Source: an uncultured Acidobacteriaceae bacterium (lineage in GTDB: Bacteria > Acidobacteriota > Terriglobia > Terriglobales > Acidobacteriaceae). Taken from it: a stretch of 64,000 bases of DNA. The notes under the pieces were generated by a model. The model had not been told where the DNA came from. It worked only from the letters and a program-made list of their open reading frames with translations, and searched no databases. The position numbers and the translations under genes were made by a program. Of the stretch, positions 7,692 to 28,860 are shown in pieces; position 1 is the stretch's first letter; every line of letters starts with the position of its first letter. The stretch covers positions 2,306 to 66,305 of the forward strand of contig CAWJAR010000014.1 of NCBI GenBank assembly GCA_963840895.1. Reading direction: 5' to 3'.

Positions 7692-7694
7692 CCG

Positions 7695-8216: not shown

Positions 8217-10367
8217 GTGGTAGGTATCTATTCCCCTCATAACGTTGTCGATTGGCTGGTTCCCGGCCGGAATCTGTTTCTGGCCATCCACGTTCTTGGA
8301 ATTGCCTGCTTCTTCTATATCGTGGCGATGCGAATGGTTCCGCTGCTTCGCGCCCAACGCGATCCTCGTTTTGATCGACCTCTAGAACGCCTCGGAAGAG
8401 TCCTGAAGTTCTGGCTGGGGCAGTGGAAGCACCCACGATACCGTTTCGCCGGAACGCTCCATATCTTGATCTTTGCTGGTTTCATTCTTCTGGCTGCCCG
8501 GGCTTTTACGGTGCTCATCATCGGAGTCAATGAGAACTTCGTGATGCCCGGTCTTTCTGGACGCGTCGGGCAAATCTACGAGACTCTAACCGACTACGCT
8601 GCCACAGTCGTGTTCATCAGTATGGTTATCGCGGTTGTGCGCCGACTTGTTTTCAGGCCCGCTCGCTACGCAGTGCCCCCTAAGTATGGCAAGGCACACA
8701 CGGCCGACGCGGTTTTCCTGTTGGGGCTGATCGCGCTGTTAATGTTCGCCGACAGCCTGTTTTCGGCTACCCGTTTCGCCGGGCATGCTTATAGTGGTGA
8801 AACTGTCGAGAGTCTTGCCATCTACTCTATGCCGAGGGCGCTGGCGATGCTCGTCGGCTCGACCTCGCTCGCCACGCTGTGGTTTCTGAATGTCACCGCG
8901 TATCTTGTCCATCAGGTCGCCTTCTATTTTCTGCTGTGCTATCGGCCATTCGGTATCCAGTTCCATGTGGAGACGTCACTGTTCAGCATTTATTTCTCCA
9001 AGCTGAACCGCGGAACGATCAAGCCGGTGCGCTGGGACGTCCCGGACGAGCATTTCGATCAGCTGAAATCGTTTGGCGTGAAGACATTCGAAGACTTCAC
9101 CTGGAAGCACATCCTCGATTTCTATTCATGCGCCGATTGCGGCCGGTGTGCGGACAACTGTCCGTCGAATGCCGTCGGTCGCCCACTTGCCCCGCGCTTC
9201 CTCACCATCAAAGCCAGGGACTACGTATTCCGCCACTACCCGGTGTTTGGCAAGGCCAAGCATGGCACGCCGTTGATCGGCAATATCTATTCCGAAGACG
9301 AAATCTGGTCCTGCACGACCTGCGGCGCATGTGAAGAAGAGTGCCCGTTGCTGGTCGAATACATCGACAAGATCGTTGATTTACGGCGCGGCATGATCGA
9401 TGACGGGAACGTTCCGCAATCCCTGCAAAAGCCGCTGAAAGCATTGGAGAGCCGCGGTAATCCATACGGCAAGATGGAGAAGAAAAGGGGCGACTGGGCG
9501 AAGAGTCCGGAGGCTTTGAAACACGGTACCATTCCGGTCTGCGACGGCAAGAACCAGGCCGATACTCTGTACTTCGTCGACAGCATCACCTCCTACGACG
9601 ACCGCATTCAGTCGATCGGGCGCGCTACCGCGCGCATCCTCAGTAACCTTGGGATGAAGTTTGGAATTCTCGGCGCCGCCGAGAAAGACAGCGGTCACGA
9701 AGTCCGCCGATTCGGCGAGGAACTTCTGTTCCAGGCGTTGCGCGATCAAAACACAGACGCCATCAGGGCATCGGGGGTTCAACGAATCGTCACCGCAGAC
9801 CCCCACGCTTACAACGCGCTCAAGCACGACTATAAAGACATTCCGCCCGTCGAGCACATCAGCCAGTTGCTTGCTCGGGAAGTGAGAGCCGGCAATCTCC
9901 ATTTCAACTCGGTGGAACAGTGGTTTGAAGATCGGAGCCGCGTCTACACCTACCACGATCCGTGTTACCTCGGTCGTCACAATCAGGTGTACGACGATCC
10001 GCGCGACGTGCTCGACTCCATCCCAGGATTGCATCGCGTTGAGATGCAGCGTTCGCGCGACCGCTCTTTCTGTTGCGGTGGCGGTGGCCTGGCGCTGTTC
10101 TATGAGCCGAAGGAAGAACAGAGGATGGGAGTGATCCGCGTGCGGATGGCCGCGGAGGCTGGTGCCAATGTCATCGTGACCGCTTGCCCGTTCTGCATGG
10201 TCAACATCGATGACGCCGTTAAGGTCGCGGGCCTGGAAGGAAAAATGTCGGTGATAGACCTGACGGAAGTGGTCGACCAGCACATGGTTCGCGGGTCTTC
10301 CGATAAAACGGCACAAAAACCCGCAGGGAAAACACAGGAATTAGAAACGGTAATTTCAGGAGGTTGA
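8217..10367 (+). CDS. membrane-bound FeS oxidoreductase, HdrD/GlpC-like with NarI-like N-terminal membrane domain (EtfAB:quinone oxidoreductase-like)
   Basis: About 5 N-terminal TM helices containing His. Two ferredoxin-type motifs, CADCGRCADNCP and CTTCGACEEECP. CCG-domain motifs HDPCYLGRH, SFCCGGGG and ACPFCMVNI. Directly coupled to etfB. Confidence 0.8.
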   Translation: MVGIYSPHNVVDWLVPGRNLFLAIHVLGIACFFYIVAMRMVPLLRAQRDPRFDRPLERLGRVLKFWLGQWKHPRYRFAGTLHILIFAGFILLAARAFTVLIIGVNENFVMPGLSGRVGQIYETLTDYAATVVFISMVIAVVRRLVFRPARYAVPPKYGKAHTADAVFLLGLIALLMFADSLFSATRFAGHAYSGETVESLAIYSMPRALAMLVGSTSLATLWFLNVTAYLVHQVAFYFLLCYRPFGIQFHVETSLFSIYFSKLNRGTIKPVRWDVPDEHFDQLKSFGVKTFEDFTWKHILDFYSCADCGRCADNCPSNAVGRPLAPRFLTIKARDYVFRHYPVFGKAKHGTPLIGNIYSEDEIWSCTTCGACEEECPLLVEYIDKIVDLRRGMIDDGNVPQSLQKPLKALESRGNPYGKMEKKRGDWAKSPEALKHGTIPVCDGKNQADTLYFVDSITSYDDRIQSIGRATARILSNLGMKFGILGAAEKDSGHEVRRFGEELLFQALRDQNTDAIRASGVQRIVTADPHAYNALKHDYKDIPPVEHISQLLAREVRAGNLHFNSVEQWFEDRSRVYTYHDPCYLGRHNQVYDDPRDVLDSIPGLHRVEMQRSRDRSFCCGGGGLALFYEPKEEQRMGVIRVRMAAEAGANVIVTACPFCMVNIDDAVKVAGLEGKMSVIDLTEVVDQHMVRGSSDKTAQKPAGKTQELETVISGG

Positions 10368-10369
10368 AC

Positions 10370-11158
10370 GTGGAAATCCTGGTATGCGCCCGAAGAGTGC
10401 CCGACACCTCGGAGAACGAGATCGAACTCAATGCTGCCGGAAACGACATTGAGCGCGATGAACTCGTTTACTCGGTGAATGAGGCAGACAACTACGCCGT
10501 CGAGGAAGCGTTGCAGATTCGCGACCGCGTAGGCGGCAAAGTCACGGTGGTCACCGTCGACAACGAGGAGGGCGAGGAGATCCTGCGCCGGCAGTTGGCC
10601 ATGGGTGCAAATCAAGCCGTTCTGCTCTCCGACGACAGCTTCGAGGGTTCTGACGGAAAAGGTATCGCCACCATCCTCAAGGCCTTTGTAGACAAGGGAC
10701 ACTACGACCTGATCCTGACCGGTGTGCAGGCCGATGACGGCGCGGCCCAAGTCGGAGGAATGCTGGCCGCGATGCTCGACTATCCCTTCGCATCCTTGGT
10801 GAACTTCATCACGGTTCAAGGCGGCAAGCTGAAAGTGAGTCGCGAGATCGAAGGCGGCAACCGCGAGATCAATGAGATCGATCTACCGTGCGTGCTCTCG
10901 ATCCAGACCGGGATCAATGAACCGCGCTATGTCGGAATGCGCGGCATCCGCCAGGTTGCGTCCGTGACGATTCCGACCTTGGGAACGTCAGACCTCGGTG
11001 TTTCTCACGGTACCGTCGGAAAAGAGGCCGCAAAGGCAAAGCGTGTCGATTACTTTGTCTCTGCGCTCAGCAAGGGTGCCGAAATCCTGAAAGGAAGCCG
11101 GGAAGAGAATGCGCAAAAGATTCTTGAGTTGGTAGCTGCGAAGGGAGGCTTAAACTAA
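10370..11158 (+). CDS. etfB: electron transfer flavoprotein beta subunit
   Basis: The N-terminus (V)EILVCARRVPD matches the EtfB signature MKILVCIKQVPD. AGGAGG lies 6 nt upstream of GTG 10370; the track start, TTG 10364, is also possible. Confidence 0.9.
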   Translation: MEILVCARRVPDTSENEIELNAAGNDIERDELVYSVNEADNYAVEEALQIRDRVGGKVTVVTVDNEEGEEILRRQLAMGANQAVLLSDDSFEGSDGKGIATILKAFVDKGHYDLILTGVQADDGAAQVGGMLAAMLDYPFASLVNFITVQGGKLKVSREIEGGNREINEIDLPCVLSIQTGINEPRYVGMRGIRQVASVTIPTLGTSDLGVSHGTVGKEAAKAKRVDYFVSALSKGAEILKGSREENAQKILELVAAKGGLN

Positions 11159-12144
11159 TGGCTCGCATTTTTGCTTACATCCTGCACAAAGGCGGTGTAG
11201 TCGATGACTCGGCTGCCGAACTCATTGCCGCGGCGAAAGCGATTGATCCCGCTTCTTCTCCTACTGCGATTCTCGCTGGCTGGGGTCCGGACTTTGATCT
11301 TTCTTGCAATTCCTTGACTGCCTCCTTCAGCGATGTCTGGAAAGTCGCAAATCAAGCGCTCGCGTACCCGAACGCCGAACTTGTTCGTCAGACGCTAGTA
11401 CGCGTACTACCGCCGGACAGCATCGTGCTCGTCCTTCATGACCATTTCGGAATCGATCTGGCGCCGGGATTGTCGATCAAGCTGAGTGCGGCATTTGTGT
11501 CCGATGTGCTGGCGATCGAAGGCGGCGATGGAAGCTCTTTGAAACTCATCCGCCAGGAGTTCGGCGGACAGTTGAGTGCACACGTCATGTGTGACATTTC
11601 CTCAGGCGCCGTGATCAATATTCGTCCCGGAGCCTTCAAGCCCCAGCCACGCCTCGTGACTTCCGGCAAGGTCATCGACAAGTCCGCCGAAGTAGGCTCG
11701 CTGACAGCACGGCGCCGCTATCTCGAAACAGTTGTCGCCGAAGCCGGCGATGTCGATATCACCAAGCACAGTCTGCTGGTGTCAATCGGCCGCGGCATCC
11801 AGGAAAAGGACAACATTGCACTCGCCGAAGAACTCGCCGAGGTACTCGGCGCAGCTGTCAGTTGTTCGCGGCCAGTGGTCGACGCCAAGTGGATGGAAAA
11901 ATCCCGGCAGGTCGGCTCTTCAGGAAAAACCGTGAAGCCCAAGGTTTACCTTGCCTGCGGCATCAGCGGCGCATTCCAGCATCTGGCCGGCATCAAGGGG
12001 AGTCCGTTTCTGATTGCCATCAACAAGAATCCCAAGGCCCCCATCTTCCAGGTGGCCGACGTTGGAATCGTGGACGACCTCCTCGAGTTCCTCCCCGAAC
12101 TGACCAATAAAGCCAGAGAATTCCGCGGCGTTGCTGCCAAGTGA
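11158..12144 (+). CDS. etfA: electron transfer flavoprotein alpha subunit
   Basis: C-terminal FAD-binding region: [10 protein letters not shown]...[27 protein letters not shown]...[12 protein letters not shown]. The ATG overlaps the etfB stop by 1 nt. Confidence 0.9.
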
Positions 12145-12154
12145 GGATGAGCCG

Positions 12155-13828
12155 ATGCTTGCATATAAAACACTGAAACTAAGCGTGAAGTCACTCAAAG
12201 AATTTGCGAAGAAGCGCTTGCCCGACGAAGTGCTGATCGAACTCGATGAGCGCGACGAGTGTCCGGTCGATATCGTGCGCGACATGTGCAGCCCCGACAA
12301 GTTGGGAATTCAGCTCCTGTTCATCCCTGAAGAATTCGGTGGCATGGGGGGCGGCACATTCGATGTCTACTGCATTTGCGAGGAGATGGCACGCATCGAT
12401 CTCGGTGTCGCTACCTCCGTATTGGCTACGTTCCTGGGGAGCGATCCGATTACCGTTGGTGCGACACACGAGCAGAAGAAGACATGGCTCAGCCGGATTG
12501 CCGACGAAGGCTTGCTCTTCGCCTACGGCGCCACCGAACCGGAAGCTGGCAGCGACCTGGGCGCGCTTCGCACCACGGCCGACCGCGTCATGCAAGACGG
12601 GCGCATCGTCGGTTACAAGATCAACGGCAACAAACAGTGGATTAGCAATGGTGGAATCGCAGGTGCCTACACGGTTTTGGCCAGCACGCCAGCCGGGCCG
12701 AGTTGGTTTGTCGTGGAAAAAGATGCCAAGGGATTTACTCACGACGAGCCCGAAGACAAGCACGGCATTCGCCTGAGCAACACAGCGGCACTCGCGTTCA
12801 ACGAGGTCTACGTTGATGCTGACCGCCTTATCGGTGGCGTTGAAGGTCAGGGCTTGAATCAGGCGCAGGCGGTATTCGGATATACGCGTCTGATGGTCGC
12901 GGCTTTTGGATTGGGCGCCGGTTGGGCCGCCCTCGATCGCGCCATCCCTTATTCCACGAAGCGCATTCAGGCCGGAGCACCGCTTTCGGAGAAGCAAGGC
13001 TACACGCACAAGCTGATCGTACCTAACGTCGCCCGTCTTGAAGCCGCACGCGCCTATATCGAACAGACAGCGGAACGCATCGATGTCGGCGAAGGCAGTC
13101 TCAACACGGAAGGCGCGATCGCGAAGTACATGGCAACCGAAGCAGGGAACCAGGCTGCCGAGGCCAGTATTCAGGCTCTTGGCGGATACGGCTACACGCA
13201 CGAATATCTGGTTGAGAAGATTAGTCGCGACGTGCGCATCACCACGATCTACGAGGGCACCTCTGAAATCATGGAGATGACCATAAGCCGAGATCGCTGG
13301 CAGCTTCACCTGAAGACTCGCGGCCAGCACTATCACGACAAAGCCGTCGAGCTGGAGGCCTTGTATGCGCAGCATCCGAACGTGGGCGCGAACATGGCTG
13401 CACTAGCCCATCACGCTCTGGCCGAATTGATGGAGAAAGCGCGGGTCGCACGCCTGACACGATATCAGCATATTCTCCTGCGCCTGGGAGAATGGATTGC
13501 CTACGCCGAGTGCGCTGGCACCTTGGCGCGCCGCGCCGCGCTTCATGCCGAGAACACGCTGAATGAAAAAGCGAATCGTCGCTTTGATGCAACGGCGCTC
13601 GCTGCCGTGAGCCGCATTTTCGCTCGCGATGCCGCACTCAAGGTCGCGGAAGAAGGTTTGCGCTGGATCTGCGGGTCCGGTGCAATCGCGGACTCTGAGA
13701 TGCCCGCTTTCGAAACAAGTTTGCAATTGCCCGCCATTCATCGTGGCCAGGCGGGTTTGATTTTTGACATGGATTTCGTAGCCGACGTCCTCTACGCCCG
13801 CGCAGCCAAGCCTGCGCTCGCCGCATAA
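12155..13828 (+). CDS. acyl-CoA dehydrogenase with ~170-aa C-terminal extension
   Basis: ACAD motifs [20 protein letters not shown] and the catalytic-base region [14 protein letters not shown] lies 7 nt upstream of ATG 12155. A helical extension follows the canonical end of the fold. Confidence 0.9.
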
Positions 13829-13886
13829 GTAAAGACGCCTGACTAATTGACGTGCAACCTGCCATCGGTTGCACAGGAGCGTCCCA

Positions 13887-16800
13887 ATGCAAATGGAAGA
13901 CACAGCCTATCGTGCGATTGCGATCGTAGGCGCGGGAGCCGTGCTGCCCGACGCCCCCAACGTCAACGCTTTCTGGGAGAACGTGAAGCGTGGCCGATAC
14001 AGCATCACCGACGTTTCTCCGGAGCGTTGGGATCCCGCATTTTATTACGATGCAGATCCCAGGGCCCCGGACAAGACGTACTCCAAGATTGGTGGATGGG
14101 TGCGCCAGTTCACGTGGGATCCGATGAAGTGGCACATGCCACTTCCACCCCGTGTCACCGATGCGATGGACCAAGCGCAGAAGTGGGCTATCGCCGCCAC
14201 TCGTGAGGCCCTCGAAGACTACGGCTACCCCAAGCGGCCGCTGGATCCCGATCGCGTCGCGGTCATCCTCGGCAATGCCATGGCGGGTGAGAAACATTAT
14301 CAGACGGCCTTGCGGGTGAACTTCCCTGAGTACGCGCATGAACTCGCTGAAAGCGAGAGTTTCGCGACGCTGCCCGAAGCCCTCCGTCGCGACATAACGC
14401 GGGAGCTGCGCGAACGCATTGGCAAACGCCTACCCGAAGTTACTGAAGACAGCATGCCCGGCGAGCTTGCCAACTGCATCGCCGGACGCATCGCCAATCT
14501 CTACAACTTCCACGGCCCGAACTTTATTTGTGACGCGGCTTGCGCCTCTGCCATGGCGGCCATGACCGCTGCCGCCGAAGGGCTGGTTGCGAACGATTTC
14601 GATGCTGTCATCACCGGCGGCATTGACCGCAACATGGGCGCTCAGACTTTCGTGAAGTTCTGCAAGATCGGCGCGCTCTCGGCGACCGGCACACGTCCCT
14701 ATGCCGAGGGTGCGGATGGCTTCGTGATGGGCGAGGGTTCTGCGATCTTCGTAATGAAGAGGTTGGCCGATGCTGAGCGCGATGGCGACAATATCTACGC
14801 CGTGTTGCGCGGAATCGGTGCATCGAGTGATGGGAAAGGCAAGGGGATTACCGCACCCAACCCGATCGGGCAGAAGTTCTGTCTGGAGCGTGCGTGGCAA
14901 AATGCGGGGCTATCGCCCGCTACCGCTACGCTCATCGAAGGGCACGGTACTTCTACTCGCGTTGGCGACGTGGTTGAAGCGCAGTGCATCGCGGACCTGC
15001 TCAAGAGTCAAAACCTTCCGGTTCACTCGGTCGCATTGGGCTCAGTCAAATCGAACATCGGACATTTGAAAGGCGCAGCGGGTGCAGCCGGAATGCTGAA
15101 GATCGCTCTGGCCCTCCGCGACAAAGTGATGCCACCCAGCGTGCACTGCGAACATCCCAGCCCAGATATCGACTTTGCCCACTCCCCTGTTTACGTCAAC
15201 ACCACACTGCAGCCGTGGACAGTTCCGGCCGACATTCCGCGACGTGCCGGCGTGAGCGCCTTCGGCTTCGGAGGCACGAACTTTCATATCGTGCTTGAAG
15301 AGCACATTCCCCACAGGCTGACCGGAAACGGGAAGCGGTCAATCGCTGTCAACCTCCCGCACACTGCGATCCCAGAGGTAGTTATGAATGTAAAAGCAAC
15401 CCCCTTCTCCCCTTCAGCCTCAACCGCATCGCCTGTCTGCAAAACTCCTCTGCGAGGTGCGTTGTTGATTGGCGCTGCCTCCGATTCCGAGCTTGTCGAA
15501 CGCTTGTCCGCGGTTATGAAGGACGCACAAGCTGGACGCATCCCGGCGTCCGCCGCTCCAGCCGAAGCCGACCTGCATGCGCCGCAGCGTCTTGCAATTG
15601 ATTATTCCGACGCCGCTGAACTGGCAGACAAGTCCGCCAAGGCTTTAAAGGCCTTCGCCGCAAATCAGTCCGTTGTGTGGAAGGCATTACGCGCGCAGGG
15701 AATCTTCCGCGGCCAAGGTGACGCGCCGAAAGTCGCATTCCTCTATACCGGACAGGGCTCGCAGTACGTGAACATGTTGCGTCCGCTCTACAACGCAGAG
15801 CCGATCGTCGCGGAGACATTTGCCGAAGCGAATCGCGTGATGACTCCTCTGCTGGGTAAGCCTCTGACTGATTTTGTATTTGTCGACCAGACCGATCCCG
15901 CTGCTGTGTCGAAAGCCGATGACGACCTTCGGCAGACAGCGATCACGCAGCCCGCCGTGCTGGCTATCGATCTCGCGCTAACCCGGTTGTTGGCCGCATA
16001 TGGCATTCAGCCAGACATGACGATGGGGCACAGCCTCGGCGAATACGGTGCACTGGTTGCGTCGGGCGCACTGCCGTTCGAGGATGCTCTTGAAGCGGTT
16101 AGCGCCCGCGGTCGTGGCATGACCCGGGTTGCGGTCGCTGACACCGGCAAGATGGCTGCCGTATTCGCGCCTCTCACGGAGGTGGAACGAATCCTGAAGA
16201 GCATCACCGGCTATGTAGTCATCGCCAATATCAACAGCGAGCACCAGGCCGTGATTGGAGGTGCGAGTGATGCGGTTGCCGAAGCCATGCAGGTTCTGCA
16301 GAAAGCGGGCTATGAAGCCTCGGAACTGCCCGTAAGCCATGCTTTCCATACCTCCATCGTCGCTCCAGCCAGCGAACCACTCCGTCAGGAACTTGCCCGA
16401 CTGCGTGTGGAATCGCCGCACCTTCCCGTGGTGGCCAATGTGAATGGAGAGTTCTATCCTACAGGGCCCGATGTCGTACCCCAGATACTGGACCTTCTCG
16501 CCAAGCAGGTAGCCTCTCCCGTGCAATTTGTGAAGGGCCTGCGCACTCTCTACGAGGCGGGCGCTCGTATTTTCGTAGAAGTTGGCCCGAAGAAAGCGCT
16601 ACAGGGGTTCGCCGAAGATGTTCTCGGCGGCCGCGGCGATGTCCTCGCACTCTTCACCAACCATCCCAAGTTCGGCGATATCGCCTCGTTCAATCAGGCG
16701 CTGTGTGGCCTCTACGCGGCAGGACTCGGCCGCGGCATCGCTGCCATCTCGCCAGAGAGGCCAGCGGAGGTCGCATCGTTGTCGCCCAGTGCAAGACCAT

Positions 16801-19800
16801 CTCCCGCCTCGGAAGAGCCATCTGTCGGATGGCGCAGCGCTTCTGGCGCTGCGATAAAGCCCAACCCCTCCCCCATGGCTTCAGCCGCTGCGCGCCGAAA
16901 CGATCCCGATCACTACGCCGAACTTGGCCATTTCTTCGCCGAGGTTCTTGAGCGCGCCTGGCAGATTCAGGGCGACCCTGCTCCGGCAAATCTCCCGGTT
17001 GTCATCACCGGTGCCGCTCTTGGCCTTCCCGGGACCGATCATGTCTTCGACGATGCCAACCTCGCCCGCCTCCTGCGTGGCGATCAATTCATCGACCTCA
17101 TCCCCACTCGCCTGCGCAAGGCAATGCTCGACAAGCACATCACCCGCCTGGTAAAGAGCGACAACGGCGGACCAACTTTCGAGACCATCAGCAACATCTC
17201 CGACGTCATTAAATTAGCCGGCCGCGGAGGCGCGTTCGATCTCCAGCAGGAATTCGGCATTTCTGCCGACCGTCGTGCCGCTCTTGATCGCGCTACACAA
17301 CTCGCCATCGCGGTTGGAATCGACGCCCTGCGCGACGCCGGCATCCCGCTGGTCATGCGCTACAAAACTACGACAAAAGGCACTCAGTTGCAGGATCGCT
17401 GGGGGCTTCCTGACGCGTTGCGAGACGACACTGGGGTGATCTTCGCTTCCGCATTCCCCGGGTGCGATTCCTTCGCCGATGAGATGGGGCGTTATTACAA
17501 CGACCACTCCCGCCGTGAGCAACTCGGCTTGTTGGAGAGCCTGCTGGCTCGGGCTGCGAAAGGGAATGGCGACTCAGTCCTCGAACAGGAAATCGAGCGC
17601 CGCACAGAGGACTTGCGGGATGCAATCGAGAAAGAGCCGTACGTCTTCGATCGCCGCTTCCTGCTAAGAACGCTGTCAATGGGGCACTCGCAGTTTGCTG
17701 AACTTATTGGCGCGCGCGGTCCCAACACACAAATCAATTCAGCCTGCGCCAGCACTACGCAAGCCGTTGCCCTGGCGCAAGACTGGATCAACGCCGGCCG
17801 TTGTCGCCGCGTGATTATCGTCTCGGCAGATGACGTGACTTCAGATCATTCCATCGAATGGTTCGGCGCAGGGTTTCTTGCCAGCGGTGCGGCCGCAACC
17901 GACGAAGTGGTCGAAGAGGCTGCCACTCCGTTCGATCGTCGGCGCCATGGCCTGATCGTCGGCATGGGCGCTGCCGGCCTCGTAGTCGAGAGCACCGACG
18001 CCGCCCGAGAGCGCGGCATTCAACCGATCTGCGAAGTGCTGAGTACGGTCACTGCCAACAGTGCCTTCCACGGCACCCGCCTCGACGTACAACACATCGG
18101 TCAGATGATGGAGAACCTTATTGGGCAGGCCGAGGCAAAGCACGGCATCTCACGCCAGCAAATTGCGCCTCATGCGGTATTCGTTTCTCACGAGACCTAC
18201 ACGCCCGCGCGCGGCGGCAGCGCCTCCGCCGAAATCCACGCGTTACGCCACGTATTCGGCGCCGCAGCCGATCAGATCGTCATTGCCAACACCAAGGGAC
18301 AAACCGGCCACGCCATGGGCACGGGGATCGAAGATGTTCTCGCTGTGAAGGCCTTGGAAACTGGCTTGGTACCACCCGTCGCTAACTTTAAAGAGGTAGA
18401 CCCGGAGTTGGGCACGCTGAACCTGTCAAAGGGCGGCGGATACCCAATCGAATACGCGATTCGATTGGGCGCGGGATTCGGCTCACAGATCAGCATGTCG
18501 TTGCTTCGCTGGAACGCCCCGAAAGATGGAGGTCACCGCCGTCCCAATGATCTCGGCTACGCCTACCGCATCGTCGACGAGGACTGCTGGAAATCCTGGC
18601 TGAGGCAAATTGCAGGCTATCCCAAGGCGGATCTGGAAGTGGTCCACCGCACATTGCGGGTGCGAGATCAAAAAACAGGGGCACGCTTGGTGGAAGTCGC
18701 CAAGACGCCTCCGGAAGCGGCCGCCGTTCCAGTCCCACCGACACCAGCGCCGGCGGAGTCGCCGCGCACTGAACCGTCACACCCGATGGTTGAAGCAAGA
18801 GTCGAAACGAAAACAGCAACTCTCGTGCCGACATCGCCCCCAAAGCCAGTCGTCCAAGGCGATTCGGTCAAGGATCGCGTTTTGGCTCTGGTCGCTGAAA
18901 AGACAGGCTATCCGGTCGACATGCTCGATCTGGATCTCGACCTCGAAGCCGACTTAGGCATCGACACCGTAAAGCAAGCCGAAGTAATGGCGACGATTCG
19001 TCAAGCCTACGGTATCGTGCGCGACGACACCATCAGGTTGCGCGATTTCCCCACGCTCGCTCGCGTCATCCAGTTCGTGCATGACCGTGCACCACAAGTT
19101 CGCGCCGCGCTGCCCTCAGCAGCTTCGCCTGTATCAGAACCTGCGCCCAAAGCGGAAGGGAAGGCCGAGCACAAGATCAAAGTCGCTCCGCCAGTCGCCG
19201 CAGTGGCTCTCGCACCCATCAAAGTTGCAGAAACAGAGACTGATCTCGTGAAAGACCGCATTCTTGCGCTCATGGTTGAGAAGACCGGGTACCCACAAGA
19301 CATGCTGGACCTCGATCTCGATCTCGAGGCTGATCTCGGTGTCGATACCGTGAAGCAAGCAGAAATGTTTGCGGCCATCCGCCAAATCTACAACATCCCT
19401 CGCGATGAAAACCGTAAGCTCCGCGATTACCCCACGCTGGCGCACGTGATTCGCTTCGTGTACGAGAAGCGTCCCGACTTGGCTGGTACGTCTGCTCTAA
19501 CAGCTCCAACCCACGTCTCGCCCCGGCCAACGCCCGCCGAGGCAGTTGCTCCATCTCTAACGCCGATCGCAGTCCACGCCAGTTCCGATGACCCCATTCA
19601 AAAGAAAGTCCTGCAGATCGTAGCGCAGAAGACCGGCTATCCCGAAGACATGTTGGATCTGGATCTCGACCTTGAGGCCGATCTTGGCGTCGATACGGTG
19701 AAGCAGGCAGAGATGTTTGCCGCTGTCCGCACCGCCTACAACATTCCGCGCGACGAGAATATGAAGCTGCGCGATTTCCCGACGTTGGCTCACGTCATCA

Positions 19801-22454: not shown

Positions 22455-22499
22455 CCCATGCAGCCCGATTAACGCTTAACCGTTTCATCGGGGTGACTA

Positions 22500-23849
22500 A
22501 TGCAAAGTGATTTTCGACGAGTCGCGATAGTGAATCGCGGTGAACCGGCGATGCGTTTTATCCGCGCAACCCGCGAGTTCAGTTACGAGCAGAGCATTCC
22601 GTTGCGCACCATCGCGCTGTTCACCGAGCCCGATCGTGATGGGATGTTTGTTCGCGAGGCCGACGAGGCTTTCTCGCTAGGAGCTGCCCAGTTCATGGAT
22701 CGCGATGCCCTGCGAACTAAAAGCAGCTACCTCGACTACAAGCGCCTCGAACAGGTGCTGGGCGCGGCGCGTGCCGACGCCGCATGGGTTGGATGGGGCT
22801 TCGTGGCGGAACACGCGGCCTTTGCCGATCTTTGCCGCGAAATGGGCATCGTGTTCATCGGTCCTTCAGGCGACGTCATGCGGCAACTCGGCGACAAGAT
22901 CGCCGCCAAGCATCTGGCAGAACAGTCCCAAATCGCCGTGACTCCATGGAGCGGCGGTCCGGTCGAAACCATTGCTGATGCACTCACGCAAGCCGATCGT
23001 TTGGGGTTCCCTTTGCTGATCAAAGCTACGGCTGGCGGAGGCGGCCACGGGATTCGTCTGGTGCACTCGGCGAGTCAACTCCCGCAGGCGTTCGAACGGG
23101 CGCGCGCCGAAGCATTCAAGGCCTTTGGCGATCCTACCGTTTTTCTCGAACACATGGTCGAAGGCGCACGTCACATTGAAGTTCAGATTATCGCCGACAA
23201 TTTCGGAACCACGTGGGCAGCTGGCGTACGCGATTGCACGATTCAGCGTCGCCATCAGAAAGTGCTTGAGGAAGCGCCTTCTCCGGCCCTTTCTGTCGAG
23301 CAAGATGAGGATCTTCGCGCAGCCGCAATTCGCCTCAGCAAGGCTGCCGGGTACTCCAATGCCGGCACCGTCGAATTCCTGTACGAGCCCCATCCCAGGC
23401 AGTTCTTCTTCATGGAGGTGAATACTCGTTTGCAGGTAGAGCATCCGGTCACCGAATGCACCACCGGCCTCGATCTTGTGAAACTCCAGATTCACGTTGC
23501 ACGGGGAGGCCGCCTCACGGGCGACTGTCCCCGCAGCATAGGTCATGCCGTTGAAGTGCGGCTGAACGCGGAAGATCCCGACAACGGTTTTGCAGCAGCC
23601 CCGGGGGTCCTCGAACGCTTCCGCATGGGGACTGGTCCAGGTGTGAGGATCGATACGGGAGTCGCCGAGGGCGACAGCATTTCTGCCGATTTCGATTCGA
23701 TGGTCGCGAAGGTGATCGCGTACGGGCAGACTCGGAAAGAGGCGCTATCCCGCCTCCACAGAGCATTGCGTGAGAGTGTCGTCGTCCTGAAAGGCGGAGC
23801 GAGCAATAAGCCGTTTCTGATGGACCTGCTCGAACGTAACGAAGTGCAG
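22500..23849 (+). other. biotin carboxylase (ATP-grasp) domain
   Basis: VAIVNRGEPAMRFIRA, KATAGGGGHGIR, IEVQI, FMEVNTRLQVEHPVTE. Confidence 0.85.
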
Positions 23850-26800
23850 GATGGGACCGTTGACGTTGGTTGGCTCGACCGCGTCGCGACGGAAGACGCA
23901 AATCTCTGCCGCAAGTATGCCGATGCAGCCTTGGTGCAGGCGGCGATCAATGCTTACGACTCTGAGTTGGCGGTGGAACAAGCTCAGTTCTATGCGTCCG
24001 CTGCACGCGGGCGTCCGCTGGTGCGGGGCGACATCGGCCGTACGCTCGCGCTCCGTTATCACGGTCGTCTGTACTCCATGAAGACCGACCGCCTCGGTCC
24101 GAAAGACTACCGCATCGAGGTTGACGGAGTGCGGATTGAAGCGCACATCGATCGTCTCGACGAGTTTGAATGCTGGCTCAGCGTCTTCGGACGCAGGTTC
24201 CATGTAGTTTCCGTCAGCCAAGGTCTGACTTCGCGCATTGAAGTTGACGGCGTTTCGCACCAGGTGGATCGTGACGACGGAGGTGTGGTGCATGCTCCGG
24301 CGCCGTCAGTCGTCGTTTCCATCGCTGTGAAAGTGGGCGACACTGTGGAAGTCGGAGACCGTCTGGCTGTGCTCGAAGCAATGAAAATGGAGACTCAAAT
24401 TGTTGCGCCCTTCTCCGGCAAGATTCGGAAAATAATGACGATGCCTAACGTGCAAGTTGACGCCGGCGCACCCCTCCTCCAAATTGAGGGGACCGGAGGC
24501 GATGCGGAGGCCGGGCCGCAGAAGCGTGTCGTCTTTGGTGAAAGCTACACTTGGCAAAATACTCGGCAAGCCACCTGCATCGACACGCTCAAAGAACTGC
24601 GCCAGGTCATGCTCGGCTTCGACCTCGATCCAACCAACAGCGCACGCCACCTCGAGGCGTGGAGTCAGAGCTGCCCTGCATGGGGCGAAGACATTGCTCA
24701 GCACGAAAACGAAATCCTCAGCATCTTTGTGGACATCTGTTCGCTCTTCCACCGCGAACCGGAAGTCAACCACCGCGCCTCTAGTGAAGAGCCCAGCGCA
24801 GAGTCGTATCTATTCTCGTATCTCCGCATGGTCGAGACCAATGCGGAAGGCCTTCCTCCCACATTTGTAACTGCATTGCGCCATGCACTGGCTCATTACG
24901 GCGCTCTCGAGTTGGATGGATCTGCGGAACTGAAGGAGAGCTTGCTTTGGATTTGTAAGTCGCACCAGCGAATGGCCGGGCAGACAACCTCGGTTCTCGA
25001 CATTCTCGAGCGACGATTGCGCCAGGCAAAGGTCCCGGGCCCGGCTCCCAGTAGCTCCTTCCGCACTCTGCTCGATCGCATGATCGCGATGACGCATGAA
25101 CTCTATCCCGCAGTCAGCGACCTTGCCCGCGAAGTGCGTTACCGTTACTTCGATGAGCCATTGTTCGAGAAGGAGCGCGATCGGGTCTTCACCGAAGCGA
25201 CCGACAATCTTAAATATCTCCAGGAGCATCCTGACGCACCCGACCGTCGCGCGCGGCTGCACGCGCTGGTCGAGTGTCCGCAGTTGCTCGCCGGCCTGTT
25301 TGGGGCTCACTTCCCATCCGCAGACAACGCATTGCGTGGCGCCATGCTCGAGGTGCTCACCTGGCGGTACTACCGCAATTGCTCACTGCGTGATCCGCAT
25401 TCTTCAGTTGTGGGCGGTCACCCCTATTTCTCAGCCCATCACGACTCCGAAGGCACTCATACGCACATCGTCGCAGCGTATGCGGAGGATGCCTGCCTTG
25501 CGACAGTGGCGCAGGCTCTGAGTCCCTTGATTGTGCGAGTGCCGGCAGACCATGACGTCGTCATTGATTTTAACCTTGCTCATCCCGCTAAACTCTCGGA
25601 TCCAGATAGTACACAGCGAGAGGTTCAGTCGATGCTGAACCAAGTTGTATTCCCGCGCGCCATCCGACGGATCGTCGTCTCAGTGGCGGGACCGAGCCAG
25701 GGACCTCGGGGAAGCGCCCTGCAGCACTTCACCTACCAGCACGATGGAAATGCCTATGCTGAGGATCCATTTTATCGTGGCCTGCATCCGATGATGGGGA
25801 AGCGCCTGCATCTCTGGCGGCTCGGCAATTTCAAAATTGATCGCGTGCCGTCAGTCGAAGACGTCTATCTTCTGCATGCCGTTGCCCGCGACAACCCGAA
25901 AGATGAACGCCTGTTCGCGGCCGCCGAAGTGCGCGATGTAACTCCTGTGCGCGACGAAGCGGGTGGCATCGTGCAGTTGCCGCATCTGGAACGTATGCTC
26001 ATGGAAGCTCTCGCCGCGATCCGTTTGTTTCAGTCGCGTCGTCGTCCCCAGGAGCGGCTGTACTGGAACCGAGTCTTCCTGTATGTCTGGCCTCCACTCG
26101 ATCTGAAGGCCGACGAATTGCGCAACATCGTGCGCAGGCTCATGCCCGCAACCGAAGGCCTTGGTCTCGAGCAGGTCGCCGTCCGCGCGCGCATCCCCAA
26201 TCCCGCGACCGGCGAACTGCGCGATCTGGTGGTGCGCATTTCGAGCCCAGTCGGCAGCGGCCTGCTCATCACTTTCCGCCCAGCCGACAAGCTACAGGCT
26301 CTCAAATCGCTCTCCGAATACGATCAGAAGGTCGTGCGCGTGCGCCAGCGCGGGCAGGTCTATCCCTACGAGATCATCAAGATGCTCACTCCCGCATGTG
26401 AGGACGCCCGCGGCGAGTTCCCGCCCGGCGATTTCGTGGAATACGATCTGGACGCCCATCGCAAGCTCGTTCCTGTCGATCGCCCCTACGGAAAGAACCG
26501 TGCCAACATCATCGTTGGAGTCGTCCGCAATTTCACTACTCGACACCCAGAAGGCATGACCCGGGTTTTGCTGCTGGGAGATCCCAGCAGAGATCTTGGA
26601 GCACTCGCCGAGACGGAATGCCGTCTCATAATCGGTGCACTGGACATGGCCGAAGAAAAAGGCGTTCCTGTGGAGTGGTTCCCAATTTCAGCCGGCGCCA
26701 AGATCTCCATGGAAAGCGGCGTCGAGAACATGGACTGGATCGCTCGTGTCCTGCGCCGGCTTATCGAATTCACGCAAGCCGGGGGGGAGGTGAATCTCCT

Positions 26801-28091
26801 GATCAACGGCATCAACGTGGGAGCCCAACCCTATTGGAACGCCGAAGCCACCATGCTCATGCACACGCGCGGCATTCTTGTAATGACACCGAAAGCCGCA
26901 ATGGTCCTTACCGGCAAGAGAGCGCTAGATTATTCAGGTGGAATCTCAGCCGAAGACAACCAGGGCATTGGCGGTTATGACCGCATCATGGGCGTTAATG
27001 GCCAGGCTCAATACTGGGCCGCAGATATCAATGATGCGTGCCAAATTCTGTTCCGCCACTACGATCACACTTACGTGATACCGGGCGAACGCTTTCCCCG
27101 TCGCGCCGAAACAACAGATCCCATCGACCGCGACGTTCAGACATTTCCTCACCGTGAAAATGGTGAAGAGGGATTCGCGTTGGTCGGCGAGATCCTGTCG
27201 GACGAAACGAACCCCGGCCGCAAGAAGCCCTTTGACATTCGTAAGGTGATGATGGCTGCGGTCGATCAAGACCATGCGCCCTTGGAACGCTGGGCGGGGA
27301 TGCGGGCTGCGGAGACCGCCGTTGTGTGGGACGCCCATTTAGGCGGCTATCCAGTATGTCTCATCGGCATTGAATCACGTTCCGTACCGCGATTAGGATT
27401 CGTCCCGGCTGATGGCCCGGATCAATGGTCGGCGGGCACTCTTTTCCCGCAGTCCTCCAAGAAAGTAGCGCGTGCCGTCAACGCCGCCAGCGGTAATCGC
27501 CCTGTCGTCGTCCTGGCGAACCTTTCAGGCTTCGACGGTTCCCCGGAATCGATGCGCCGCCTGCAACTCGAATATGGTGCCGAGATCGGCCGTGCCGTGG
27601 TGAATTTCAAAGGCCCGATCGTGTTCTGCGTGATCTCGCGCTATCACGGTGGCGCCTATGTCGTTTTCTCGGGCGCTCTGAACGACGGCCTCGAAGTGGC
27701 TGCATTGGAAGGAACCTACGCCTCCGTGATTGGAGGCGCTCCCGCTGCAGCGGTGGTGTTTGCCGGAGAAGTCGAATCGCGCACCCGCAAAGACGAACGC
27801 CTTCAGGCATTGAACCAAGCCATGCTCCAGGCGGACGCCATCGAAAAAGGCCGCCTGCGCTCGCAGTGGAACGAACTTCACGACGTCGTCTATTCCGAGA
27901 AACTTGGCGAGATGGCCAACGAGTTTGACCGCGTACACAGCGTCTACCGCGCACTGAGCGTGGGCGCTCTCAGTCACATTATTCCTCCCGCGAACCTTCG
28001 CTCGTACTTAACCGATGCGGTCGAGCGGGGCATCCGTCACGAGGAACATCCAGGAGCGAAGGAAACGCTCGAGATCGTGGAAGCAGCGTAG
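22500..28091 (+). CDS. single-chain multidomain biotin-dependent acyl-CoA carboxylase (BC-BCCP-central-CT)
   Basis: 1863-aa ORF; domains are listed in the sub-features below. Confidence 0.85.
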   Translation: MQSDFRRVAIVNRGEPAMRFIRATREFSYEQSIPLRTIALFTEPDRDGMFVREADEAFSLGAAQFMDRDALRTKSSYLDYKRLEQVLGAARADAAWVGWGFVAEHAAFADLCREMGIVFIGPSGDVMRQLGDKIAAKHLAEQSQIAVTPWSGGPVETIADALTQADRLGFPLLIKATAGGGGHGIRLVHSASQLPQAFERARAEAFKAFGDPTVFLEHMVEGARHIEVQIIADNFGTTWAAGVRDCTIQRRHQKVLEEAPSPALSVEQDEDLRAAAIRLSKAAGYSNAGTVEFLYEPHPRQFFFMEVNTRLQVEHPVTECTTGLDLVKLQIHVARGGRLTGDCPRSIGHAVEVRLNAEDPDNGFAAAPGVLERFRMGTGPGVRIDTGVAEGDSISADFDSMVAKVIAYGQTRKEALSRLHRALRESVVVLKGGASNKPFLMDLLERNEVQDGTVDVGWLDRVATEDANLCRKYADAALVQAAINAYDSELAVEQAQFYASAARGRPLVRGDIGRTLALRYHGRLYSMKTDRLGPKDYRIEVDGVRIEAHIDRLDEFECWLSVFGRRFHVVSVSQGLTSRIEVDGVSHQVDRDDGGVVHAPAPSVVVSIAVKVGDTVEVGDRLAVLEAMKMETQIVAPFSGKIRKIMTMPNVQVDAGAPLLQIEGTGGDAEAGPQKRVVFGESYTWQNTRQATCIDTLKELRQVMLGFDLDPTNSARHLEAWSQSCPAWGEDIAQHENEILSIFVDICSLFHREPEVNHRASSEEPSAESYLFSYLRMVETNAEGLPPTFVTALRHALAHYGALELDGSAELKESLLWICKSHQRMAGQTTSVLDILERRLRQAKVPGPAPSSSFRTLLDRMIAMTHELYPAVSDLAREVRYRYFDEPLFEKERDRVFTEATDNLKYLQEHPDAPDRRARLHALVECPQLLAGLFGAHFPSADNALRGAMLEVLTWRYYRNCSLRDPHSSVVGGHPYFSAHHDSEGTHTHIVAAYAEDACLATVAQALSPLIVRVPADHDVVIDFNLAHPAKLSDPDSTQREVQSMLNQVVFPRAIRRIVVSVAGPSQGPRGSALQHFTYQHDGNAYAEDPFYRGLHPMMGKRLHLWRLGNFKIDRVPSVEDVYLLHAVARDNPKDERLFAAAEVRDVTPVRDEAGGIVQLPHLERMLMEALAAIRLFQSRRRPQERLYWNRVFLYVWPPLDLKADELRNIVRRLMPATEGLGLEQVAVRARIPNPATGELRDLVVRISSPVGSGLLITFRPADKLQALKSLSEYDQKVVRVRQRGQVYPYEIIKMLTPACEDARGEFPPGDFVEYDLDAHRKLVPVDRPYGKNRANIIVGVVRNFTTRHPEGMTRVLLLGDPSRDLGALAETECRLIIGALDMAEEKGVPVEWFPISAGAKISMESGVENMDWIARVLRRLIEFTQAGGEVNLLINGINVGAQPYWNAEATMLMHTRGILVMTPKAAMVLTGKRALDYSGGISAEDNQGIGGYDRIMGVNGQAQYWAADINDACQILFRHYDHTYVIPGERFPRRAETTDPIDRDVQTFPHRENGEEGFALVGEILSDETNPGRKKPFDIRKVMMAAVDQDHAPLERWAGMRAAETAVVWDAHLGGYPVCLIGIESRSVPRLGFVPADGPDQWSAGTLFPQSSKKVARAVNAASGNRPVVVLANLSGFDGSPESMRRLQLEYGAEIGRAVVNFKGPIVFCVISRYHGGAYVVFSGALNDGLEVAALEGTYASVIGGAPAAAVVFAGEVESRTRKDERLQALNQAMLQADAIEKGRLRSQWNELHDVVYSEKLGEMANEFDRVHSVYRALSVGALSHIIPPANLRSYLTDAVERGIRHEEHPGAKETLEIVEAA
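24288..24488 (+). other. biotinyl (BCCP) domain
   Basis: VLEAMKMETQIVAP; the biotinyl-Lys629 codon is at 24384-24386. Confidence 0.85.
24507..26351 (+). other. ACC central-like region
   Basis: About 600 aa between BCCP and CT with no catalytic motif. The end, VEDVYLLHAVARDNPKDERLF, resembles the end of the eukaryotic ACC central domain. Confidence 0.45.
26352..28004 (+). other. carboxyltransferase domain (fused N and C lobes)
   Basis: LLLGDPSRDLGAL, ISAGAKI, GINVGAQPYWNAEATM, VVLANLSGFDGSPESM, GGAYVVF. Confidence 0.75.
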
Positions 28092-28122
28092 CGCCGGAAG
28101 AAAAGCGAGGGGCGAGTTCTCC

Positions 28123-28860
28123 ATGGAGCTTTACTGGCTGGAACAAACCGAATCTGACGTGCCCGCCGACGATCGTTGGCTGAGTCCGGAGGAATCGATT
28201 TGCCTTCACTCCATGCGCTTTGCCAAACGACGCAATGACTGGCGTCTTGGCCGCTGGACTGCGAAGCGAGCTCTCGTCGCCCACCTTCGGTCGCCCATCG
28301 ACATCCGTGCACTCGTGGACGTGGAAATCCACGCCGCAGAGTCTGGCGCTCCAGAAGTATTCCTCTATGGCGAGCCTGCCGACGTCGCAATTTCTCTCAG
28401 TCACCGCGCTGGCACCGCCTTATGCACGGTGGGGCCGCCAGTCAGCAACTTCGGCTGCGACCTGGAACGAATAGAACCGCGCAGCGAAGCCTTTGTAGCC
28501 GACTACTTCACAGCGGCCGAGCAAACCCTCATTGAGCGAACGAATCTGCCAGGCCGGTCACTGCTACTCGCATTGCTCTGGAGCGCCAAAGAGAGCGCTC
28601 TCAAGGCCCTGCGCGTCGGACTTCGACTTGATACCCGGAGCATCAGTGTTATCCCGGGCGCCGGTTGGTCACACGTCTGCACTGACCCAGAGGAGTGGCG
28701 CCCCTTGCAACTCCAATACGCACCCGCAGGCTGCTTCGAAGGTTGGTGGAGAACTCAACACGACCTCGTGCGAACCGTAGTCGGCGATCCCCCGTTATGT
28801 TCTCCCCTTCACGCAATCCAGAGCCACCCTCTTGCATTAACCGTGCCCTCTCCTTTCTAG
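28123..28860 (+). CDS. Sfp-type 4'-phosphopantetheinyl transferase
   Basis: FGCDLERIE (G-x-D) and LLWSAKESALKAL (W-x-x-KE-x-x-x-K). I prefer ATG 28123 with an upstream GAGGGG; the track start at 28015 would overlap the carboxylase. Confidence 0.85.
   Translation: MELYWLEQTESDVPADDRWLSPEESICLHSMRFAKRRNDWRLGRWTAKRALVAHLRSPIDIRALVDVEIHAAESGAPEVFLYGEPADVAISLSHRAGTALCTVGPPVSNFGCDLERIEPRSEAFVADYFTAAEQTLIERTNLPGRSLLLALLWSAKESALKALRVGLRLDTRSISVIPGAGWSHVCTDPEEWRPLQLQYAPAGCFEGWWRTQHDLVRTVVGDPPLCSPLHAIQSHPLALTVPSPF

Follow-up and report, generated by a model that had tools for sequence, protein, structure and literature searches.

A predicted quinone-linked acyl-CoA dehydrogenase module as candidate trans-acting enoyl reductase of Type R secondary lipid synthases in Acidobacteriota

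A block of seven genes in the DNA of an uncultured Acidobacteriaceae bacterium (contig CAWJAR010000014.1 of assembly GCA_963840895.1) is described here; the 64,000-nucleotide stretch of this contig that was analysed is referred to as the window, and all positions are given within it. The block, at 8217-28860, joins genes for an acyl-CoA dehydrogenase (ACAD), an electron transfer flavoprotein (ETF) and a predicted ETF:menaquinone oxidoreductase (EtfD) to those for a PfaA-like megasynthase, an acetyl-CoA carboxylase (ACC) and a phosphopantetheinyl transferase (PPTase). The last three match the published Type R cluster of secondary lipid synthases. The ACAD gene stands directly upstream of the synthase gene in all close relatives, and in one lineage PfaD, the enoyl reductase (ER) of polyunsaturated fatty acid (PUFA) synthases, is found in its stead. 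We propose, with about even confidence, that the ACAD, together with ETF and EtfD, acts as the trans-acting ER of the synthase, and that the block would be one biosynthetic unit, i.e., a Type R iterative type I synthase provided with its own ACC and its own PPTase. The functional assignments are predictions drawn from sequence and structure comparison. The seven genes, with families assigned by Pfam and NCBIfam, are the following.

8217 to 10367, plus strand: EtfD-type membrane iron-sulfur oxidoreductase, 716 amino acids (Pfam, hydropathy, PDB homology)
10370 to 11158, plus strand: EtfB, beta (small) subunit of ETF (PF01012, 1.1e-40)
11158 to 12144, plus strand: EtfA, alpha (large) subunit of ETF (PF00766, PF01012)
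12155 to 13828, plus strand: long ACAD resembling very-long-chain acyl-CoA dehydrogenase (VLCAD), 557 amino acids (three ACAD Pfam domains)
13887 to 22454, plus strand: Type R PfaA-like megasynthase, 2855 amino acids from its ATG, with the order ketosynthase (KS1), acyltransferase (AT), second ketosynthase (KS2), three acyl carrier protein (ACP) domains, ketoreductase (KR), dehydratase (DH) (Pfam, whole protein and segments)
22500 to 28091, plus strand: single-chain, eukaryote-like biotin carboxylase, 1863 amino acids, with the order biotin carboxylase (BC), biotin carboxyl carrier protein (BCCP), ACC_central, carboxyltransferase (CT) (Pfam, PDB matches)
28123 to 28860, plus strand: Sfp-type 4'-phosphopantetheinyl transferase with GxD and WSAKES motifs (PF01648, PF17837)

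These open reading frames (ORFs) are tightly packed, as an earlier note on this DNA had described, and its gap lengths were reproduced when the ORF ends were checked against gene-caller starts. The iron-sulfur oxidoreductase gene ends at 10367, 2 nt before the etfB ATG at 10370 (a 4-nt overlap results with the TTG at 10364); etfB overlaps etfA, which starts at 11158, by 1 nt, and etfA ends at 12144, 10 nt before the ACAD ATG at 12155. The ACAD gene ends at 13828 and is followed after 58 nt by the synthase ATG at 13887, with an AGGAG 8 nt upstream of this ATG; 45 nt then separate the end of the synthase gene (22454) from the carboxylase start (22500), and 31 nt the end of the carboxylase gene (28091) from the PPTase ATG (28123). 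In agreement with the same note, a consensus terminator scan placed no site in any intergenic gap of the block; the 18 weak matches that it returned across 6000-25999 were all inside ORFs, at a shuffle expectation of 18.6.

The domains of the synthase were located as follows.

13911 to 15323, plus strand: KS1, polyketide synthase (PKS)-type ketosynthase with Cys/His/His triad (DAACAS, HGTST, NIGH), residues 15-485 (Pfam, motifs)
15738 to 16607, plus strand: AT with GHSLGE and HAFH motifs, residues 624-913 (Pfam, motifs)
16926 to 18548, plus strand: KS2, FabF-like ketosynthase with a family-specific N-terminal part, residues ~1020-1560 (segment Pfam, motifs)
18873 to 19811, plus strand: three tandem carrier domains, each with LG(I/V)DTVK (PP-binding Pfam matches)
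20868 to 21311, plus strand: KR with YSAAN motif (PF08659)
21549 to 22394, plus strand: PKS-type double-hotdog DH with the motif HQIEGTPVLP, i.e., HxxxGxxxxP (PF21089, PF14765)

The KR and DH domains look active by their motifs, and Pfam scans of the whole protein and of its segments returned no ER, thioesterase (TE) or reductase domain, bearing out what had been noted earlier. Likewise, tblastn with PfaD and KS queries across the 64-kb window found no PfaD-, PfaC- or further KS-like sequence, and no PfaB-like gene is present in the window either, again as noted before. The PfaA model TIGR02813 scored 945 bits against the synthase, below its cut-off of 1010.1, and the best matched stretch was residues 16-945. 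The HAFH motif indicates an AT of the malonyl-specific type. The earlier account of the architecture, correct as to KR and DH, had missed the second, FabF-like ketosynthase between AT and the carriers. This domain retains the full triad of Cys (SACAST), His (SHETYTP) and His (KGQTGH), none of which varies even in alignments that reach 44% identity, and the best PDB matches of its profile are FabF enzymes (E ~ 1e-37). Since the Cys-His-His residues are kept and the profile is FabF-like, KS2 is probably a second active condensing enzyme, which would give the synthase two active ketosynthases; the chain length factor label ('CLF') used for this position in the Type R literature was ruled out by the presence and invariance of the active-site Cys and both His residues.

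The upstream genes encode a predicted electron path between an ACAD and the quinone pool. The product of the first gene has about five N-terminal transmembrane helices by hydropathy, a Fer4 dicluster at residues 300-377 (two [4Fe-4S] motifs) and a CCG region at 577-664, of which one CCG stretch passes by itself. This combination of a five-helix membrane N-terminus, two [4Fe-4S] motifs and CCG is the architecture of EtfD (PMC13083937), and the best solved homologue is 9OJN_A (E = 1.4e-82), a structure cited in the cryo-EM paper on M. smegmatis EtfD, in which this protein serves as an electron wire from ETF to menaquinone (PMC13083937). EtfD had previously been found to link ETF to menaquinone in mycobacteria (Beites et al. 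2021, PMC8593149), and the 8217-10367 product is predicted to be such a link. EtfB contains the ETF domain and EtfA the ETF domain plus the ETF_alpha FAD domain, from adjoining genes. As for the ACAD, the N, M and C domains are all present, together with the motif YEGTSEI, which we take to hold the catalytic Glu as in medium-chain (MCAD-type) ACADs. A C-terminal extension of about 170 residues, with invariant positions, constitutes a conserved helical domain; these features place the protein in the VLCAD-like subclass. Its AF2 model (pLDDT 90.4) matched the fold of human VLCAD, 3OWA and 2Z1Q at full length (TMq 0.76-0.80), the full-length Foldseek matches being 7S7G, 3B96, 3OWA and 2Z1Q. Because the fold match to VLCAD-type enzymes extends over the entire protein, the model points to long-chain substrates.

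To follow the block across relatives, about 170 related loci were compared, using neighbourhoods of +/-10 kb, in which the window proteins were located by tblastn. With the synthase as query, over 120 clusters of homologues were retrieved (67-93% identity), among them those of Candidatus Sulfotelmatobacter and Acidobacteriia. A KS2-profile scan of species-representative genomes gave at least 597 confirmed stretches, of which the best 80 were used as loci; these were from Terriglobia, Bryobacterales, Solibacteraceae, Korobacteraceae, Blastocatellia and others. A scan of metagenome contigs, seeded with a more distant member, gave at least 562 confirmed KS2 stretches, and 80 further loci were taken from it. 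By these counts, few uncharacterised lipid or polyketide loci of soil Acidobacteriota are as widespread as the Type R PfaA-like clusters. The ACAD gene was directly upstream of the synthase gene in every one of the 103 loci with at least 70% KS2 identity, with varying flanks, and in 117 of the 139 upstream-informative loci overall; all 22 loci without it fell in the bin of 61% KS2 identity or less, i.e., the PfaD clade described below and the outgroup. Three homologues on large contigs, two of them megabase-scale, had the same FeS-EtfB-EtfA-ACAD-synthase-ACC-PPTase order within entirely different flanks, and a Korobacteraceae metagenome-assembled genome (MAG) carried the FeS-EtfB-EtfA-ACAD-synthase part. 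Where enough upstream sequence was available in the acidobacterial clade, EtfD was found in 84 of 88 loci and ETF in 85 of 88. Thus, the synteny in relatives that the earlier note had named as a check on its proposal was found, and the tie that it drew between the redox module and the synthase stands for the ACAD throughout the close relatives, EtfD and ETF being confined to one subclade.

The proteins themselves indicate a similar relationship. Within the block, the ACAD shows the highest conservation (median identity 84%; the PPTase has 51% and the remaining proteins 70-77%), and its divergence follows that of KS2 (Spearman 0.81). When the search was started from the ACAD side, the long-ACAD family was found to span several phyla, and the two members that were looked up, one on a 5.78-Mb contig and the other in a Caldilineaceae MAG, were both directly upstream of a KS-AT-KS-...-KR-DH synthase; the ACAD-synthase pairing therefore occurs in Chloroflexota as well. 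Functional coupling of ACAD and synthase is, on these comparisons, well supported. The earlier note had offered, as its alternative, a chance adjacency of a beta-oxidation operon and a PKS operon, i.e., that EtfD-etfBA-ACAD is an ordinary beta-oxidation operon that came to lie upstream of the Type R operon fortuitously and was vertically inherited in one phylum. All four proteins do belong to families used in beta-oxidation, and EtfD homologues have been reported in Acidobacteria such as A. capsulatum (PMC13083937); moreover, the 58-nt gap between ACAD and synthase could hold a promoter, and this gap, with a median of 68 nt over 125 loci, reaches 410-580 nt in some relatives. Nevertheless, we reject this explanation as very improbable, since the adjacency is complete among the close relatives despite wholly different flanks, the pair occurs without ETF and EtfD in other, distant lineages including Chloroflexota, a search begun with the ACAD family leads back to the synthase, the loss of ACAD coincides exactly with the appearance of PfaD, the ACAD gene, conserved more strongly than any other of the block, diverges in step with KS2, and the gaps contain no predicted terminator.

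The lineages in which the ACAD is missing bear on the nature of the coupling. A clade with 56-61% KS2 identity lacks the ACAD and has the arrangement [CT-BC-BCCP]-synthase-PPTase, behind which a PfaD gene (PfaD_N and NMO domains) lies in convergent orientation. Among the 100 loci that were informative on both flanks, 86 had ACAD only, 13 had PfaD only, none had both and one had neither. Lineages with 61-69% KS2 identity have ACAD-synthase-PPTase with a three-gene or single-chain ACC and no EtfD or ETF nearby. In a KS2 tree, constructed by neighbour-joining without bootstrap support, the PfaD clade was sister to two ACAD-bearing loci, this group then being sister to the large ACAD-bearing clade, and the loci with EtfD and ETF formed a nested subclade. 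Since the PfaD clade is thereby nested between ACAD-bearing lineages, the most economical interpretation is that the ACAD is the ancestral partner and that PfaD took its place in one lineage; on the same interpretation, the genes for ETF and EtfD would have joined the cluster later, in the Terriglobia/Bryobacterales lineage.

Several details of the divergent loci were recorded alongside. In L091, L092 and about 20 further metagenome loci, the convergent PfaD is accompanied by an upstream three-gene ACC (fused AccD-AccA CT, BC and BCCP), so that PfaD and the ACC trio take the place of ACAD and the single-chain ACC; the PfaD gene of L091 is at 12190-13800 on the minus strand, and L091 and L092 have DUF362 and poly-ferredoxin genes downstream. 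In L093 (GCA_014730365.1, WJIK01000017.1), a fusion of PPTase and synthase lies amid archaeal- or eukaryotic-type Pfam matches (a weak Pcc1; Ribosomal_S13_N/S15), and from these neighbours the KS-AT-KS synthase family may also be present in an archaeon.

The earlier note had left the redox module as an enoyl-reducing or desaturating partner. Of the two, the enoyl-reducing role is favoured and the desaturating role less so, because the synthase has KR and DH without ER and because PfaD replaces the ACAD. In the mechanism that we propose, the KS, KR and DH steps of each elongation cycle would leave a trans-2-enoyl thioester on the pantetheine arm, which the ACAD, working in the reductive direction, would saturate; the FAD of the ACAD would be re-reduced by EtfAB, and EtfAB would be joined through the membrane protein EtfD to the menaquinol/menaquinone pool. 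The electrons for chain saturation would then be drawn from, or exchanged with, the respiratory quinone pool and not NAD(P)H, and the product would most likely be a long, largely saturated acyl chain, i.e., a secondary lipid. The enoyl-CoA/acyl-CoA couple is at about -10 mV and menaquinone at about -74 mV, and thus quinol-driven enoyl reduction is feasible, the reverse being uphill. Enoyl reduction by the quinol-ETF-ACAD route is also known for Ascaris. Complexes of ACAD and ETF that act as enoyl-CoA reductases, namely CarCDE (6FAH) and Bcd-Etf (5OL2), were among the PDB matches, and a quinol-ETF-ACAD route to enoyl-CoA reduction in lipid synthesis has been proposed for Euglena (PMC6587861). 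The proposal is also in keeping with NCBIfam scores of the window ACAD against RedW and PigA, two ACADs that depend on carrier proteins, which would suit a substrate tethered to a carrier.

It may be argued that the ACAD is coupled to the synthase but works oxidatively, introducing a 2,3-double bond into an acyl thioester, either a starter from the primary fatty acid synthase (FAS) or a finished or intermediate chain, and passing the electrons through EtfAB and EtfD to menaquinone. In that case the module would serve for desaturation or tailoring with a link to respiration, and the synthase product would be unsaturated or hydroxylated. ACAD-family dehydrogenases of acyl carrier proteins are known from polyketide pathways (TcsD, FkbI, RedW), and the window ACAD also scores against the NCBIfam models of the carrier-protein-dependent ACADs RedW (144 bits) and PigA (129 bits). 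The EtfD-EtfBA-ACAD chain has been characterised in the oxidative direction in mycobacteria (PMC8593149, PMC13083937), the window EtfB resembles a non-bifurcating ETF, and the outgroup clusters have no ER of any kind. On the other hand, an ER-less KS-KR-DH synthase leaves a 2-enoyl group at every cycle, which would make a 2,3-dehydrogenase redundant; the displacing partner has the PfaD_N domain, typical of the ER of PUFA synthases; and, as a matter of general thermodynamics, oxidation of an acyl thioester with menaquinone as acceptor is uphill. Overall, we consider oxidative coupling doubtful.

Another possibility is that the ACAD is indeed a trans ER, but that its ETF is reduced by NADH, in the manner of bifurcating ETFs, or by another donor, EtfD being an overflow or balancing link. 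The type of the ETF is relevant here, as judged from PDB matches and one motif: EtfA is nearest to 5OL2_A, the Bcd-associated EtfA of C. difficile (1e-49), with CarE second, and EtfB is nearest to the ETF beta subunit of M. methylotrophus (1O94_C, 3e-40), which belongs to a non-bifurcating ETF. The top NCBIfam models for all three proteins (ACAD, EtfA and EtfB) are the clostridial acryloyl-CoA reductase subunits AcrA, AcrB and AcrC. Furthermore, in an Anaerolineae-type cluster (L115), the order ACAD-synthase-PPTase is followed, at 11668-13687, by EtfB and a CarE-like EtfA of full length (E = 5.8e-129), which bears a 2x[4Fe-4S] ferredoxin domain at its N-terminus. Against an NADH-fed ETF stand the lack of an N-terminal ferredoxin domain in the window EtfA (Pfam), the deviation of the window EtfB from the GRQAIDGDTAQVG stretch of aligned bifurcating EtfBs (one residue of the GDT stretch is missing) in addition to its non-bifurcating nearest match, and the retention of EtfD in nearly all loci of the clade, which speaks for EtfD being a core component and not an accessory. 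The L115 arrangement is a single case that may be coincidental. Taken together, this variant appears unlikely.

A number of observations weigh against the proposal that the ACAD is a quinol-fed trans ER, and should be considered together. ACAD chemistry is reversible, and the sequence therefore cannot give its direction; to our knowledge, EtfD and non-bifurcating ETFs have been characterised only in the oxidative direction, and it is a non-bifurcating ETF that the window EtfB resembles most. The ER of the host type II FAS could act in trans instead. One or two events in evolution would be enough to produce the exclusivity of ACAD and PfaD, and the supporting tree has no bootstrap support; moreover, H. 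pylori FabX (PMC8626469) is a member of the NMO/FabK family that can run as a dehydrogenase, by which precedent the exchange of ACAD for PfaD would not prove reduction. The outgroup clusters L089 and L093 have neither ACAD nor PfaD, and their synthases contain no ER domain, so that an ER-less, polyene-type ancestral chemistry is possible. Independent recruitment of a reductase-type ETF, considered for L115, was downgraded as a single weak case, since the orthologues of its ETF on two contigs (79-82% identity) belong to ordinary short-ACAD-EtfBA (Bcd-like) operons away from any synthase. Finally, because the ACAD-bearing lineages outside the Terriglobia/Bryobacterales clade have clusters without ETF and EtfD, the quinone link may be generic housekeeping rather than dedicated.

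The carrier domains of the synthase are unusual in their own right. In all three, Thr codons (18966-18968, 19347-19349 and 19695-19697) stand where the phosphopantetheine-bearing Ser is canonical, which the earlier note had missed. Residue-level alignment placed the carrier Thr exactly on the DS serine of solved ACPs, and the Ser of the canonical acyl-carrier motif (L)GxDS is thus absent from all three carriers of the window. A motif census of 120 close homologues returned Thr in 463 of 463 carrier motifs, distant representatives had 187 Thr and 7 Ser, and the KS-AT-KS synthase family overall had 650 Thr and 7 Ser. Our literature search found no record of threonine phosphopantetheinylation, and the S36T variant of E. 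coli ACP is reportedly not modified by AcpS. Two readings may be considered: it is possible that the co-encoded PPTase modifies the carrier Thr, which would explain why the PPTase gene travels with the clusters, and it is also possible that the Thr carriers are used in some other way. If Thr is modified, the known scope of PPTases would be extended, and it would be understandable if heterologous expression failed in the absence of the cognate PPTase. The most inclusive proposition, that quinol-fed enoyl reduction through ACAD, ETF and EtfD and carriers phosphopantetheinylated on Thr together characterise a phylum-wide type I lipid synthase, is put forward only tentatively. It is to be noted that six relatives (P0140, P0144, P0249, P0256, P0268 and P0269) carry, in the region from KS1 to AT (residues ~540-660), one or two additional carrier motifs of the Thr type that the window synthase does not have.

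The remaining two genes of the block complete the picture of a self-contained cluster. The single-chain carboxylase is presumably an ACC that supplies malonyl-CoA. In 62 of 78 close loci the ACC is a single chain, in others it is a CT-BC-BCCP trio, and in about ten it is absent. The PPTase was found after the synthase or the ACC in loci that reach far enough downstream; in P0155 and P0161 it forms a single polypeptide with the synthase. The two functions thus appear to be intrinsic to the cluster while the forms of their genes are interchangeable, which is consistent with the roles assigned to them in the earlier note, i.e., extender supply by the carboxylase and carrier activation by the PPTase.

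The surroundings of the block were also surveyed. The earlier inventory lacked two small ORFs just upstream, which are co-conserved with the block in its nearest relatives, and it had placed a terminator after the last gene, at 28861-28896, where a strong hairpin is indeed found.

7434 to 7691, plus strand: small ORF, 85 amino acids (no Pfam match)
7713 to 8099, plus strand: small ORF, 128 amino acids, with a Gly-rich hydrophobic C-terminal half (no Pfam family)
28871 to 28896, minus strand: GC-rich hairpin between the convergent PPTase and NHL-repeat genes, with its T-tract on the minus strand

The first small ORF is kept directly upstream of the block in the nearest relatives only, as judged from gene calls in identical and near contigs, and tblastn matched it at 46-71% identity in L006, L009, L011, L012, L015-L017 and L083. 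The second possibly encodes a membrane protein; its identity is 64-73% in the nearest relatives, and its association with the block is loose, the homologue being elsewhere in the locus or on the opposite strand in L008, L044, L048, L070 and L073. The single sigma-70-like promoter match of the scan, at 7084-7111, is upstream of both. The hairpin shows just an upstream A-tract on the plus strand, and is therefore better seen as primarily the terminator of the convergent gene at 28923-32312 (minus strand), although it may act bidirectionally. This gene encodes a 1129-residue NHL / beta-propeller / ASH-Ig repeat protein and is not kept beside the block in relatives; the genes further downstream (SLT, HAD hydrolase, TPR, alpha/beta-hydrolase, MacB-type permease, GroEL and others) are unrelated and likewise not conserved beside it. 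The sole Rfam match in the whole window was a tRNA, namely tRNA-Arg(CCT) at 6207-6291, the 3' end of which (6270-6291) recurs 940 nt downstream at 7210-7231 with 91% identity. The two repeats bracket a 154-residue ORF at 6558-7022 and, situated just upstream of the block, look like att sites left behind by an integrative element that is small or decayed. Directly upstream of the tRNA gene, 2689-6176 contains a DnaB_N-like ORF, a D5_N/DUF5906 primase-helicase and a tyrosine integrase; this mobile-element module adjoins the conserved block and is outside it, and the sister contig L004 has a different integrase fragment at that place. The contig that contains the window is present in several public metagenome assemblies, e.g., NCBI GCA_025450795.1.

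Comparison with known systems helps to delimit what is new. The Type R secondary lipid synthase cluster was defined by one pfaA homologue of the order KS-MAT-'CLF'-ACP(3-6)-KR with a PPTase downstream (Shulse & Allen 2011, PMC3098273), in Koribacter, Solibacter, Elusimicrobium and Roseiflexus, and the Koribacter versatilis cluster has an ACC gene inserted between its pfaA and pfaE homologues (PMC3098273). The window block is alike in domain order, in the ACC between synthase and PPTase and in the absence of pfaB, pfaC and pfaD, and its synthase-ACC-PPTase core is, by these sequence features, the published and uncharacterised Type R cluster. The earlier description of an orphan, undescribed megasynthase is therefore ruled out by the published definition, down to the Koribacter ACC insertion (PMC3098273). 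Of the accompanying claim that the pathway had not been described, the part concerning the core falls for the same reason. The part concerning the redox association holds so far as our literature search in an incomplete library extends, which found no paper linking ACAD or ETF to Type R or giving a characterised product; the Type R paper itself (PMC3098273) makes no mention of ACAD, ETF, an iron-sulfur oxidoreductase, PfaD-bearing relatives or Thr carriers. The redox link to the Type R core thus appears to be new.

The PfaABCDE system of marine Gammaproteobacteria shares the PfaA-like core with tandem carriers, KR and PS-DH, and an Sfp-type PPTase (PfaE). There, enoyl reduction is the task of a separate protein, PfaD, which is itself present in the sister clade of the window synthase. 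In contrast, the window has no PfaB and no PfaC (KS-CLF-FabA-type DH/isomerase), and hence no route to cis-polyenes; it has the ACAD for PfaD, a second KS in the same polypeptide, Thr rather than Ser carriers, and a TIGR02813 score below cut-off. If the proposed role of the ACAD is true, trans ERs that serve ACP-based synthases would include a new class, and a synthase that appears 'ER-less' in genome mining would be explained.

With regard to the redox genes, the mycobacterial EtfD-EtfBA-FadE system (PMC8593149, PMC13083937) comprises the same families in the same ACAD-ETF-EtfD-menaquinone chain. However, it functions in catabolism, works with many ACADs and is encoded apart from any synthase, whereas the window genes form one block with a megasynthase, the window ACAD phylogenetically takes the place of an enoyl reductase, and the window EtfD is shorter (716 compared with 1042 amino acids). 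The Bcd-EtfAB (5OL2), CarCDE (6FAH) and AcrABC complexes likewise consist of an ACAD with EtfAB and are physiological enoyl-thioester reductases; their electron donor is NADH, with flavin-based bifurcation to ferredoxin, their substrates are short CoA esters, and a membrane EtfD partner is lacking, whereas the window ACAD is long, VLCAD-like and paired with a quinone-linked EtfD. Human ACADVL and the long bacterial ACADs 3OWA and 2Z1Q have the same fold, including the C-terminal helical domain, at only 22-25% identity and with a different genomic role.

Functional analogues are also known from eukaryotes. The 2-methyl-branched-chain enoyl-CoA reductase of Ascaris is a quinol-driven, reversed ACAD. 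In the wax-ester fermentation of Euglena (Nakazawa et al. 2018, PMC6587861), electrons are proposed to pass from a low-potential quinol through ETF and ACAD to a trans-2-enoyl thioester, as in our proposal, and chain saturation would serve as an electron sink (PMC6587861). These systems differ in being mitochondrial, in using rhodoquinone and ETF-QO rather than EtfD, and in working on CoA-bound chains by reversed beta-oxidation, with no ACP-based megasynthase. If our proposal is true, the Acidobacteriota block would be a bacterial counterpart of such 'enoyl respiration', in which saturation of a lipid chain is a quinol-oxidising, respiration-like reaction and not one that consumes NAD(P)H; the synthesis of membrane or secondary lipids would be linked directly to the respiratory quinone pool, with a bearing on redox balancing in oxygen-limited peat and soil.

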